Shown here: piece by piece, positions 32,864-37,100 of the stretch
How positions within the stretch are numbered: position 1 is the first letter of the stretch
Layout of the letters: each line of letters opens with the position of its first letter
Source: Minisyncoccota bacterium
Lineage (GTDB): Bacteria; Patescibacteriota; Minisyncoccia; Phycocordibacterales; UBA1550
DNA length: 64,000 nucleotides
Direction of reading: 5' to 3'
NCBI GenBank assembly: GCA_023229865.1
Contig: JALNYL010000003.1
Span: 22,109-86,108 of the forward strand
Translations under genes and position numbers: made by a program
The notes under the pieces: generated by a model
The model's database searches: none
What the model was told of the DNA's origin: nothing
What the model saw: only the letters and a program-made list of their open reading frames with translations

Positions 32864-33301
32864 TTAGGAATTCTTTTTGAGGGATCCGTTAAGAATAATG
32901 AGGGTAGAAATTATTGCATACAGAAATGTCAAAAATATACCAACCAAATCTTTTGATATTGCAAAAAATGCATCTCCCTCATACCAAGGAGTAATTATTA
33001 CAATAAATAAATAAATAAATAAATAAATAAAGGTAAATTTTTGCCAAAAAACAAACATAGATTGTTTCTTAAAGAAAAGCATTAGCACAGAGAACAGCGC
33101 AACTCCGAAGGCAATAAAACTAATGACGGTTGCAAAATGACATGTAGTTACCCAATATGCAAACCTCTCGTCTTGCCCGATATTTAAACACAGCCCCGAG
33201 TCAGTTTTTATTAAATATCTCGAAAAAGGATAGAGGGAAGCGAAAATTATACTAATAAGAAACATTTTCCCTTGCGTAAACCAATTCAGTATTTTTTGCA
33301 T
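32864..33301 (-). CDS. small polytopic membrane protein, paralog P2 (contains in-frame (AATA)7 tract)
   Basis: 145 aa, 4 TM; paralogous to 33657-34095; near-leaderless start after TAAAAT. Confidence 0.6.
   Translation of the reverse strand: MQKILNWFTQGKMFLISIIFASLYPFSRYLIKTDSGLCLNIGQDERFAYWVTTCHFATVISFIAFGVALFSVLMLFFKKQSMFVFWQKFTFIYLFIYLFIVIITPWYEGDAFFAISKDLVGIFLTFLYAIISTLIILNGSLKKNS
33003..33030. repeat. tetranucleotide microsatellite (AATA)7 inside the P2 coding sequence
   Basis: 28-nt perfect tandem repeat encoding FIYLFIYLFI. Confidence 0.95.
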
Positions 33302-33344
33302 AATATATTTTAATTAACTTTTTTAATATCCAGACACAAAACAC

Positions 33345-33644
33345 CTACCCTTCAAACCTAACCCCCACCACATCAGTCTGCGTGATACCGTTGACCGTCG
33401 TGGTAATAGTTATATTTTCTTGGGTTGTTGCGAGGCTTTGAGGGAAGAAGAGTGAGAACTTCGTTTGCTTGCGGTCGTCGCCGTCTTTATGCTCTTCCTC
33501 TTGAACAACGCTCATCATAGTGAAATTACCAGTGATATTGGTCAGGAAAGGTACATCTTTCTTGATACCAGTCACTTTTACGGTCAGCTCAAGGGGTTGC
33601 CCCCCCGTTTCTTCTCGTTTCTCTTTGGGTGGGGGCGGAGGCAA
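33345..33644 (-). pseudogene. orphan duplicate of the giant protein's C-terminal ~85-aa domain (TTG-initiated ORF; silent cassette or remnant)
   Basis: ~80% aa identity to last 85 aa of 34140-39116 product; no ATG/RBS. Confidence 0.6.
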
Positions 33645-33656
33645 CTATTTGTTTCA

Positions 33657-34095
33657 TTACCGTTGGTCTTTTTGAAGAGATTTGTAGAGGATATAGATTA
33701 ACGAAAACAAGACATAACCAACTGAAACAATCAGCGCGATAATATCTTTTTCAATATGCAAAAACTCATCACCAGAATACCAAGGAACCAAGATTAATAT
33801 TGCTATATACACATATATATAGTTCATTAATGTTATTTTCCATGACTCAAAAACATGTTTTTTTGTAAAGAACATAACTACAGACGGGATAAATATCGTA
33901 GCCCCAATCAACAATATTAATCTAAAATATTTTACACTACTCATACACACACTCCCCCAGGAAAGATTCCAGTTCATGCAGTAATCATACAAAGAACTCA
34001 TTGCGCTTATTTGAAACAAAATACCAAACCCAATAATTCCAACTATCCCAATAGCAAACGTTTTTTTGTGTAAACCAATTCAATATTTTTTGCAT
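33657..34095 (-). pseudogene. small membrane protein paralog P1, disrupted by frameshift in T7 (A7) homopolymer at 34061-34067
   Basis: conserved start MQKILNWFTQ at 34095 is out of frame with the 120-aa ORF 33657-34019; deleting one A restores a 146-aa protein collinear with P2. Confidence 0.55.
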
Positions 34096-34139
34096 AATAT
34101 ATATTACTAACTAATTATTAATATCCAGACTCAAAACAC

Positions 34140-37100
34140 TCACTCCTCAAACCTCACCTCCACCACGTCCGTCTGAGTAATACCATTCACCGTCGTGACA
34201 ATAGTGATATTTTCTTGAGTTGTCGTGAGGCTTTGCGGGAAAAACAACGAGAATTTCGTTTGTTTCCGGTCATCACCATCACTATGTTCTTCCTCTTGTA
34301 CCACATTGAGGGTTGTAAAGTTCCCCGAGATATTTGCGGTAAATGGCGTGTCTCTCTTTGCTCCACTCATCTTCACCGTAAGAACAAGCGGTTGTCCTTT
34401 CTTGAGTTTGATGGTGTCATCTGATTTTAGAAGAAGTGACGTACTATGCTCTGTATCTTTGTACTTATACTGAAGTTGAGCAGACTGAGTCTTGTCGTAG
34501 ATAGTGACAGAGGAGGTCTGAGAGGTAGAGATATTTGCAGTGGTATTGATAATAGCGAGAGTAATAGGAGCACTTGCAAATTTGAATTCTTTGTCGAGAT
34601 CATGTCTTTTCTCTTCATCTAACTCATTATCCCACTTGTCCTTGAGAGATTTGCGCTCCTTCGAGTTGCCTTTCTTGGTAGCGATGGTGAATGTGTAATT
34701 CCTAAGCTCTTTGGTATCTTGAAGGAACGTGATTGAGATGACGCCATCAGCAGTTGTGACTGCTGCAGGAACAATTGTCCCCGCGTTGTCTTTTACAGGA
34801 TTAGCACCTACTTGATAATAAGTATTTGAGAGCGTGAGGAGTACATTCCCCTTCCCTGCTACAGAGAATGGCAAGTCAAATGATTCCTTTTCCCATAGCG
34901 CATACTCGGTTGGAATGGTGAGATTTGCAAAGACGGTAGCATCAAATGGCTTCACGTCATCTTGGTTTGGTACTCCATCGCCATCTGGGTCAGCTTCAGG
35001 AGATGAGTAGATAGTTACGGCAATGCTTGAAGTTGCGATATTGCCCGCCATGTCTTGTGCGGTTATTAATATGTTTGTAACTCCTGGTGCAAACGTTTGA
35101 GTAAGGGGTGCATCTGTAGTGAATGTTGGGTTTGCATCAATACTATCACTAACGGTCACGGGGATAGTAAGGAGTGTACCATTTGCAGTAAGTTGCTCAG
35201 TGGATGTGTCTGACGCGAAGATTGTTGGTGCGACAGTGTCGATATTTAACACAAGAGTCTTTGGGGTTTCGCTGTTCTCATTATTATCTACGGAGTAATA
35301 CTGAATGGTAGTTGTGCCTTCTGTAGCAATAACTAGGGGCGTACTAGTGCTATACGTATTCCACGTAGTGCCATTATCAAGTGAGTACTTTGTAATTGCG
35401 ACCCCTGAAGATACTTCGCCAAGCGAAGCCACGTCGTCCGCGATGAGCGTGACGGTAACTTGAGATGTGTAGTATTCATTTAACCCGAGAGTACCTACTG
35501 GGGTTGCAGTGGTTACTGGTGCCGTGAGGTCGTTGCTTTCTTGCACAGAGACATCTGCTCCTGCGGTGTTGATGAGGTACGTCTTTTCTTCTGTTGGAGC
35601 AATGGTTTGATTCTCGAGAATTGGAGATGTGAAAATTCCTACAGCAGGGTCAATAGTACGAGCGTAGAGAGAATATGAATCAGTGGTTGTCGCCATCTGG
35701 CTTGCGATTTGTGGATTCTGTTTCAAGAACTCATCATTATCGTGTGCTGAGACGTAGTACTTTACCTGAGTACCTTCGGGAACATAGATCCACTCAGGGA
35801 TGCCTTGGTTATCACCCGAGACTATTGAGCCAGAGATTTGATTCTCATACTCCCCTGTTACATAGTTCACACCAACATGCTTGCCGTCAGGGGTGATTGC
35901 GTGGAGGTCGAGGTCGGGGGAAATTGAATTAAAGAGAGAAGAAGCAGGAACAACATTTCTTTTATTTTTACATGGATCTGGATTTTCTTTTGTCCTAAAA
36001 CTTCCACAAGTTGTGTCAAAATCTTTAGGAATATATCGAACTTCCCCAAGGAAAATGCGAAGAATGAACACAAGATACACAAGCCAAACCAAAGCTGTAG
36101 TAACCCACAGAAGCTTCACTAAGAACTTAGAAACTTTGTGTTTTGTGTTATTTTTTAAATCCTTCTTCTTATAAAGGACAAGCGCAATTAAACTTAGTAT
36201 CAAGAAAAAGACGGGGGTAGGAGCGGTGTCTTTTATAAAGTATGTTATTAAGTTAGTCGTAAATATTGCCCCCGCAGTAAAATTATGAGACACCCCCACC
36301 ACATTTGTTTGGATTGAGTCGTACAAATCGTTTTGCGGGCGAAGGATACTGCCTTTCATTTTATTCAAGAACGAACCAGGAGAAATGTCTTGTATTGAAG
36401 CTAATATTTTGTACTTCCCGTCAACATTTTCTTCTTCATTTGCTGAAATACGTACCCAGTTGTCAAGGTCGAGATACCCCTCTCCTGCTGGAGAAAGAAT
36501 GCCATCGTTTATTCCAAGTGTTCCTGCAGGAATTGTTATTCTTCGTTTTTGGTTTCGGATCGACTCGCTATCATATCCATACTCCTCAGGAGATCCACTT
36601 GCATCAACGCGATACAACACTAGGGCTTTATCCTCAGGAAGCGAGGAATCCCACGTTGAGAGATTCTTATTGCGTGCTTCAAGGATGTAGTATTGCTGTG
36701 TTGTTGTGGCAATATTGTCCTCCAAATTGTAACGGAAAATTGTGTCACCAAAATTGCTTGTTTCTAGAGAGTTTATCCAATGCGTGCCGTATTCGGCTTT
36801 TGAATGAACGTCTTCTTTTAGCCAGCCAAGAAATTCTTGGGTGTAGGAACTTAGATATGATGGATTGGTGCCATCATCATTATTTGCTCCACCATTCCAC
36901 TCACCAGCAGCCATAAGGTCCCATTGACCAACATTTCCCATTTTATATAAATCAGGGGTCATTGTACCCGCAGGATCAAGAATAACACCAACATTATGCG
37001 CCAATTCATGTACCCAGAAGCCCACTGGGTCTTGTTCGGCAATAATTAATTTATACGGAGCTTGTCCAAACAAAAGACCAAAGGGTGTCCAAGATAGAGT

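Follow-up and report, generated by a model that had tools for sequence, protein, structure and literature searches.

In the metagenome-assembled genome (MAG) of a Candidatus Pacebacteria/Paceibacterota bacterium, a tiny groundwater member of the candidate phyla radiation (CPR), the gene for a giant surface protein is followed on the same strand by a small membrane-protein gene (hereinafter P1), a detached copy of the C-terminal end of the giant (the orphan; GenBank MCK9344826, M0P64_01715) and a second small membrane-protein gene (P2). The region analyzed here, referred to as the window, is a 64-kb stretch of an 86.7-kb contig (JALNYL010000003.1, positions 22,109 to 86,108). Sequence comparison with related genomes robustly indicates that the same C-terminal cassette occupies the orphan slot in this genome and the expressed slot, at the end of the giant gene, in another, and that it switched slots after the two lineages split. 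The locus is probably best explained as the two-unit case of a lineage-specific array of cassettes that are moved by rare homologous recombination.

The main evidence comes from the proportions of synonymous (pS) and nonsynonymous (pN) differences, obtained as Nei-Gojobori counts over 85 aligned codons. Compared to the last 85 codons of its own giant, the orphan shows a pS of 0.79, i.e., the synonymous sites are saturated, and a pN of 0.13, so that the two copies appear to be old and both subject to constraint at the protein level. This combination argues against long neutral decay and also against a recent duplication; an earlier note on this DNA had described the locus as a tandem duplication. 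In contrast, the comparison of the orphan with the last 85 codons of the giant from locus L001 (L1 for short) of the MAG SO_2017_GW1_44 gives a pS of 0.41, 89% amino acid (aa) identity and a pN/pS ratio of about 0.15. This pS is at the baseline for the two genomes (0.31-0.48 for rpsM, rpsK, rpsD, rpoA and rplQ), which implies that the cassette changed between the expressed and orphan slots since the genomes split. The last 85 codons of the window giant itself have a pS of 0.68 relative to the L1 giant, above the genome baseline. In terms of nucleotides (nt), the orphan differs from the L1 giant at 36 of 255 positions, compared to 70 of 255 for the window giant (p = 3e-4). Comparison of the orphan with unrelated modules yielded no equally low pS, i.e., no sign of an artefact of codon constraint.

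The conservation of the window giant relative to the giants of L001 and L002, another locus of the same MAG, is mosaic, and the boundaries of the patches are sharp. Codons -190 to -101 from its end (34443-34712, minus strand) form an L1-like patch with 22 differences in 270 nt from the L001 giant, versus 125 differences in 420 nt (~30%) in the flanks (Fisher p = 1.5e-12). The pS of these codons relative to L001 is 0.33, whereas all other pairs of modules show values of 0.6-1.0 there, so that this part of the gene is not synonymously constrained. The 3' edge of the patch is the left boundary of the non-orthologous C-terminal block. In the orphan, codons -75 to -36 (33453-33572, minus strand) have 94% identity to the C-terminal sequence expressed in the L001 giant (permutation p = 0.0008), with 7 of 120 nt differing, versus 38 of 120 that differ from the window's own giant. 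The L1-like tract extends to about codon -100 of the giant and is taken up again at about codon -75 of the orphan. Furthermore, the orphan, the spacer that follows it and P2 are colinear over 758 nt with the giant 3' end, spacer and P gene of L037, a locus assigned to the same MAG by its locus-tag prefix.

The direct repeat and the giant protein

At the nucleotide level, the duplication amounts to a direct repeat of 283 nt (33320-33602 and 34115-34397, 795 nt apart, 74% identity) that runs from the last 85 codons of the giant gene through a 44-nt spacer to codon 10 of the small gene, and no further. In the giant, the repeated coding portion (34143-34397, minus strand; GQPL...VRFEE) is the C-terminal part of the final beta-sandwich domain. 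The open reading frame (ORF) of the orphan (33345-33644, minus strand) encodes 99 aa from a TTG start, with the 85 homologous codons at 33348-33602, and is 81% identical to the last 84 residues of the giant (tblastn E = 9e-43); no further copy of the C-terminal fragment was detected in the window. Within the repeat, conservation is highest over the spacer and the start of the small gene, up to codon 10 (93% identity over 41 nt; longest exact run, 19 nt). One spacer, which carries a conserved leader motif, extends from the giant stop codon to the P1 ATG (34096-34139, minus strand) and the other one from the orphan stop codon to the P2 ATG (33302-33344, minus strand).

These comparisons bear out several elements of the earlier note, namely, a second, TTG-initiated copy of the last ~85 codons of the giant, and the repetition of the intergenic spacer and of near-identical 5' gene ends. 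The note had also included the small membrane-protein genes in the repeat. However, P1 and P2 show no nucleotide-level similarity past codon 10, and their proteins, which belong to different sublineages, are only 34-35% identical across the last 72 residues (E = 2e-12), so that the identity of about 80% that the note reported for the proteins applies to the C-terminal fragment but not to P1 and P2. Taken together, the original observation is partly confirmed and its interpretation partly supported. Misassembly of the repeat was rejected because of the 26% divergence between the copies and the presence of the same architecture in assemblies from JGI, NCBI, ENA and Logan.

The giant gene (34140-39116, minus strand) encodes 1658 aa. 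A scan against Pfam and NCBIfam identifies NosD-type beta-helix repeats and an M6-like metalloprotease domain downstream of a signal peptide; hydrophobic segments point to two transmembrane (TM) helices in the middle of the protein (at about residues 963-1013); an OmpL47-type barrel, a HYR domain and a conserved C-terminal region of ~600 aa follow. An AlphaFold2 model of the last 310 aa, built from a shallow alignment and of modest confidence (predicted local distance difference test, pLDDT, of 62), contains two beta-sandwiches (residues 60-132 and 196-309) with a charged helical hairpin between them. A Foldseek search started with this model detects only generic matches to tandem immunoglobulin-like (Ig-like) or adhesin structures. 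Thus, the model suggests, albeit with low confidence, that the repeated module consists of Ig-like beta-sandwiches and is not a toxin. The orphan begins at residue 226 of the 310-aa module and is missing strands one to three of the last beta-sandwich in the model, so that it is unlikely to fold alone.

Between P1 and the homologous part of the orphan lies a GC-rich junction (33603-33656, minus strand) that has no homology to the giant and includes the TTG of the orphan. The non-homologous stretch reads TTGCCTCCGCCCCCACCC...ACGGGGGGG, and the only G/C homopolymer of at least 7 nt in the window (33600-33606) is located at this junction. A scan for promoters and terminators gave results not above chance, including a promoter-like match at 34121-34094 in the spacer behind the giant, and an Rfam scan of 32500-34700 detected no RNA family. 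Throughout the window, even genes for ribosomal proteins and chaperones have no Shine-Dalgarno-like motif in front of them (for instance, upstream of 52154, 56908 and 58667), and leaders are A/T-rich. The lack of such a motif in front of orphans is therefore uninformative, and start calls for small ORFs in this lineage cannot rely on ribosome-binding sites. All genes of the locus are on the minus strand, in the order ScpA, ScpB, S11 family D-Ala-D-Ala carboxypeptidase (39249-41624), giant, P1, orphan and P2, and MraY, FtsW and MurG follow on the same strand.

Cassette arrays in other Paceibacterota

The C-terminal family is rare: a search of 5.8 billion proteins yielded 5 matches with the profile of the 99-aa orphan and 7 with the last 310 aa of the giant; the latter are nearly all stand-alone ORFs of 193-311 aa. 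In at least six other Paceibacterota populations, the genes are arranged as giant-P-(orphan-P)n, with up to three orphans. The MAG SO_2017_GW1_44 encompasses three such giant loci: L001 is organized as giant-P-orphan(135 aa)-P, L002 as giant-P-P, with no orphan, and L037 consists of a giant of the LCAT type followed by P-orphan302-P-orphan302-P-orphan135-P. In Parcubacteria GW2011_GWC1_42_11 (locus L030), a giant of the lipase type precedes P-orphan193-P-orphan311-P-fragment. The same pattern of orphans with P genes on the flanks is found in L040, L026, L028 and L032, and 3'-truncated fragments are present in L029 as well as in L030. The proteins WC791_04645, WC791_04650 and MCK9344826, all annotated as 'hypothetical proteins', are 3' modules of giant genes.

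Across these loci, the giants have in common the C-terminal ~500-600 aa (75-95% identical) and differ in their N-terminal enzyme regions. The N-terminal half consists of NosD beta-helix repeats and an M6 protease in the window (34140-39116) versus LCAT/lipase-like domains in L030 (3594-8405) and L037 (3889-8157). The presence of the same C-terminal ~500 aa on different N-terminal enzymes indicates that whole N-terminal halves are swapped as well. Distant NosD-type giants (L003-L006) have neither a P gene nor this C-terminus nearby. The 5' ends of the orphans differ, leaving 85, 135, about 150, 193, 217 or 302-311 aa, and none of the orphans contains a signal peptide or other N-terminal regions of the giant. 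All orphans of the 300-aa class are ATG-initiated (MNQLF..., MFDF..., MPTFF...).

The orphans evolve under purifying selection. The window orphan contains no stop codon or indel in its 85 homologous codons, and the probability of 99 stop-free codons in random sequence of the same composition is about 0.004. In related genomes, 11 orphans were examined, and each of them is an intact ORF with no internal stop. In orphan-orphan pairs, pN is 0.10-0.18 versus a pS of 0.6-0.8, which is indistinguishable from giant-giant pairs; for example, the L001 orphan and the third orphan of L037, paralogs from one MAG with the same 135-aa boundary, yield a pS of 0.64 and a pN of 0.10. The possibility that the fragment is a decaying remnant, which the earlier note had put forward, is thus contradicted at the level of the family.

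Several other features of these arrays were observed. A divergent type of the C-terminus ('...DRKQKTFTLFYPLST...VGG.TK...KFED'), about 50% identical to the common type, is represented in 5 of the 11 orphans (L001 14954-15358; L030 8856-9437; L037 8656-9564 and 11378-11785; L040 329-1261) and in none of the 5 giants sampled. In the ENA contig L025 (1-616, compared to L030 from 10724 onward), the sequence is 100% identical to the GW2011_GWC1_42_11 array starting from nt 462. An in-frame fusion of the FtsX N-terminus with the 51 final codons of an orphan lies upstream of this point and could be either a real variant produced by microhomology-mediated rearrangement or an assembly chimera. A further candidate for an alternative junction, L027 compared to L026, was rejected because it turned out to be only a divergent, low-coverage contig end within the upstream P gene.

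The P genes and their repeats

P1 (33657-34095, minus strand) encodes a small four-TM membrane protein and is frameshifted: the frame set by the ATG at 34095 runs into a stop after 36 codons, whereas the main part of the gene requires the +1 frame (open at 33657-34079), so that the coordinates given for P1 in the earlier note do not delimit an intact ORF. The frame switches at an A7 run (T7 on the plus strand; 34061-34067, minus strand) in codons 10-12. The frame is restorable by A6 or A9 at this position, and the repaired N-terminus (MQKILNWFTQKKTFAIG...) matches those of in-frame relatives (L028 and L002 Pb). About 25 other A/T runs of at least 7 nt in the window are located in intact ORFs, so that the frameshift in P1 does not reflect a general homopolymer error. 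With these data, phase variation, transcriptional or ribosomal slippage, and pseudogenization are not distinguishable as causes of the break.

P2 (32864-33301, minus strand; MCK9344825) is an intact gene for a four-TM protein of 145 aa, 79% identical to the product of the P gene directly after the L037 giant, and its AlphaFold2 model is a four-helix bundle (pLDDT 91). It contains a (TTTA)7 repeat (33002-33029, minus strand) that encodes FIYLFIYLFI and is the only tetranucleotide simple sequence repeat (SSR) with at least 5 units in the window. The repeat, in the form of (TTTA)4-7 with the same coding capacity, is kept in the middle of the gene in one P subtype. The poly(A) run of P2 is interrupted (CAAGGGAAAATG), whereas its L037 ortholog has A9.

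A survey of 18 distinct related P genes shows that a poly(A) run of A5-A9 at codons 10-12 is a common property. The frame is lost at this run in 6 of the 18 genes, P1 included; four of these six have an in-frame TTG as a possible alternative start, and P1 and L026 Pd have none. In three or four of the 18, the frame is broken at the (TTTA)n repeat (L030 Pc, L032/L037 Pb, L037 Pc), and no frameshift was found in these genes outside the two kinds of tracts. The frameshifts recur in independent assemblies, and SSR tract lengths show no differences between replicate consensus assemblies of the same populations, which indicates that the frameshifts are real yet provides no evidence of switching. This pattern is compatible with phase variation or recurrent gene loss driven by the repeats, or with slippage as a means of rescue.

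The P family comprises about 1500 representative clusters and has no Pfam model. Searches of Pfam and NCBIfam with the orphan, P1 and P2, and of Pfam with ten distant P relatives, gave no matches, and an exact look-up of P2 in a contig index was likewise negative. The pairing of giant and P genes extends to distant members of the family, which follow LCAT or NosD giants that lack the C-terminus discussed here, in line with the cassette-array reading proposed below. A second array of small membrane-protein genes is present in the window itself (52995-55321, minus strand). It consists of four ORFs, all of them behind a copy of one 59-nt leader (78-93% identity), of which 52995-53450 (M0P64_01790) and 54899-55321 belong to the P family, and 53552-53986 is homologous to the two-TM mid-region of the giants (E = 6e-11 to 5e-20). 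This array also holds a 265-aa multi-TM ORF without a Pfam match.

Origin of the array and alternative explanations

Under the cassette-array scenario that we consider probable, the unit would consist of a 3' fragment of a giant gene (85 to 311 codons, covering the distal Ig-like region), the conserved spacer and a P gene. The unit now fused to the window giant would comprise its last roughly 100 codons, the spacer and P1, and the older unit behind it would comprise the orphan, the spacer and P2, with the orphan being the ortholog of the C-terminus that is still expressed in the sister genome. Two routes to this configuration can be envisaged. In the first one, a paralogous cassette of ~0.85 kb (new C-terminus, spacer, P1 and junction) would have entered the 3' end of the giant in this lineage by double crossover and pushed the ancestral C-terminus, with its P gene, downstream. 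Alternatively, the sister lineage might have deleted across its array, so that the orphan became joined to its giant. The arms for recombination would be provided by the conserved coding sequence of the C-terminus and by the segment composed of the spacer and the 5' end of the P gene. As a consequence, the distal tip of the surface protein would be exchanged, P paralogs would pile up, each with its own conserved leader, and individual P genes would be switched off or lost through frameshifts at the poly(A) run and (TTTA)n.

Several observations weigh against this scenario. The direction of the event is not polarizable without an outgroup. The P gene behind the L1 giant is of a different subtype from P2, so that at least one further exchange has to be assumed. 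The first 10 codons of the orphan are not L1-like (9 differences in 30 nt), which would be explained under the displacement route if the right-hand arm was inside the resident C-terminus. The C-terminal family is present in only about 8-10 populations, so that the inferences are based on few sequences, and pS over 85 codons has a standard error of about 0.065 (from 57.5 synonymous sites). The near absence of long high-identity tracts among modules within genomes implies that exchange must be rare. Finally, whatever function the 85-codon orphan might have at present, it amounts to less than one domain and could be a recently displaced, functionless relic.

Among the alternatives, the one that fares best, although we consider it unlikely, is active antigenic variation, with the promoterless orphan serving as a silent cassette that often converts the C-terminus of the giant within a population, as in the pilS, MgPar and vls systems. 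The partial 3' copies without signal peptides that adjoin a surface-protein gene, the mosaic giants, the orphans kept intact by selection and the movement of a cassette between the expressed and orphan positions are all in line with this possibility, and antigenic variation of large surface proteins of Patescibacteria has been speculated upon but not shown (PMC11809585). However, exact matches between the C-terminal coding parts of the two copies in the window do not exceed 11 nt, and the synonymous sites of these parts are saturated. Intragenomic patches of at least 93% identity are rare and short, with only three, of 60-80 nt, across all arrays, and replicate consensus assemblies of the same populations are identical. 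In addition, the ATG starts of all 300-aa-class orphans would be needless in a purely silent donor. The mosaic patches and the correspondence of the orphan to an expressed C-terminus were seen between genomes, and the donor of the present C-terminus of the window giant was not found. The proposal of the earlier note that the orphan is a donor cassette stands in a historical sense only, given that the giants are mosaic and that the orphan is orthologous to a C-terminus expressed in another MAG, but conversion is probably not ongoing in the window genome.

In-situ tandem duplication of the giant 3' end along with a P gene, followed by divergence, would make the orphan a paralog born at this locus. 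This would account for the adjacency of the two units in the same order and orientation, and for the spacer and the first 10 codons of the P gene, where both copies have window-specific states (GTCTGGATATTAA; ATGCAAAAAATA, which encodes MQKI) that are not seen in other loci. However, such an origin is improbable, considering that the orphan resembles the C-terminus of the L1 giant more than that of its own giant (89% versus 80% aa identity, in agreement with the pS values above), that the divergence of the copies exceeds the genome baseline, and that P1 and P2, from different sublineages, are only about 35% identical. The common spacer states are better explained by short-tract homogenization; only the spacer and the 5' end of the P gene (about 75 nt) look homogenized within the window genome.

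We assign a similarly low probability to the explanation that the orphan and the frameshifted P1 are outgoing pseudogenes and that the arrays are neutral by-products of recombination. The orphan is cut inside a domain, starts with a TTG after which come 14 unrelated codons, and has no signal peptide; P1 is broken; L030 and L029 carry 3'-truncated fragments; and recent displacement would equally explain the intactness of the window orphan. Against this stand the open frame of the orphan, which is not readily expected by chance, the purifying selection evident in orphan-orphan pairs and the conserved ATG starts of the long orphans.

Small multi-TM proteins are typical immunity proteins for membrane-active toxins, and the locus could accordingly be read as a polymorphic toxin-immunity system of the contact-dependent inhibition (CDI), Rhs or Maf kind, with the C-terminal fragment as the toxin tip, P as the immunity protein and orphan modules downstream. 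The gene order is that of the orphan cdiA-CT/cdiI and rhs-CT/rhsI arrays, in which, too, orphans are found fused to full-length genes in other genomes (PMC3150448), but this reading is very improbable because the C-terminus is conserved (75-89% aa identity) and the N-terminal enzyme region variable, the reverse of polymorphic toxins, no toxin family is identified by Pfam or NCBIfam and the modeled beta-sandwiches have only generic Ig-like/adhesin matches, C-terminal types (I and II) do not co-vary with P subtypes, several of which are found with each type (the nearest C-terminus to the orphan is in L001, whereas the nearest relative of P2 is in L037), and P genes also follow giants that lack this C-terminus.

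Comparison with known systems and implications

The locus most resembles the CDI/Rhs orphan arrays and the silent cassettes of the Mycoplasma type but fits neither. As with the orphan modules of CDI/Rhs systems (Poole et al. 2011, PMC3150448), a large gene for an exported protein is followed by a small gene and by 5'-truncated 3' copies, each with its own small gene; the orphan of one genome is the expressed C-terminus of another; and new modules appear to be loaded by recombination in conserved upstream sequence. In contrast to those systems, the C-terminus here is conserved, with a predicted Ig-like structure in place of a hypervariable toxin, it is the N-terminal enzyme region that varies, no demarcation motif precedes an abrupt divergence of the sequences, the C-terminal and P types do not co-vary, and the array belongs to a CPR bacterium. 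The genes examined around the locus include none for CdiB, the type VI secretion system or other toxin-delivery machinery.

The similarity to the MgPar/mgpB-mgpC system of Mycoplasma genitalium (PMC2169797), pilS/pilE of Neisseria and vls of Borrelia consists in truncated copies of surface-protein genes without export signals, mosaic expressed genes, partial copies kept open by selection, and a reduced genome in a probably host-attached organism. Here, however, membrane-protein genes alternate with the cassettes, many of which are ORFs with an ATG start, the nt identity of the cassettes to the expression site is 65-80% without long identical flanks, and replicate consensus assemblies reveal no variants within a population. 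The frame-setting tracts inside the P genes are reminiscent of SSR contingency genes (Haemophilus, Neisseria, Campylobacter and Mycoplasma vlp), and the poly(A) run of 5-9 nt also of the poly(A) frameshifts of endosymbionts that are rescued by transcriptional slippage. Unlike in contingency genes, there is no heterogeneity of tract length at the consensus level, at which minority variants are invisible; A7-A9 runs are short for efficient slippage of DNA; and most of the poly(A)-shifted P genes could start at the in-frame TTG mentioned above.

In ultrasmall CPR bacteria, contact with the host is believed to depend on giant surface proteins, and the diversification of these proteins by domain reshuffling or antigenic variation has so far been a matter of speculation only (PMC11809585). 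In the literature on polymorphic toxins and on phase or antigenic variation in Patescibacteria, we found no description of arrays such as those analyzed here. The locus therefore provides a concrete, testable case, with a defined cassette unit, a slot-change event and purifying selection on the stored copies. It also brings to light a large, uncharacterized P family whose genes are linked to those for giant surface proteins and contain hypermutable repeats. The annotation of these genomes can be corrected accordingly, with MCK9344826, WC791_04645 and WC791_04650 described as 3' modules of giants, and genes of the P1 type as reproducibly broken at repeats. A more far-reaching possibility, which we put forward tentatively and regard as rather doubtful, is that Paceibacterota possess a coupled, Mycoplasma-like system of surface variation, in which C-terminal tip cassettes, kept as orphan ORFs behind giant surface enzymes or adhesins, are exchanged by recombination with the expressed gene, and the expression of the partner four-helix P proteins is toggled by slippage at poly(A) and (TTTA)n tracts. 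If this is the case, it would be the first concrete machinery of antigenic or phase variation described in the CPR, and would bear on the attachment of these episymbionts to their hosts or on their evasion of hosts and phages.

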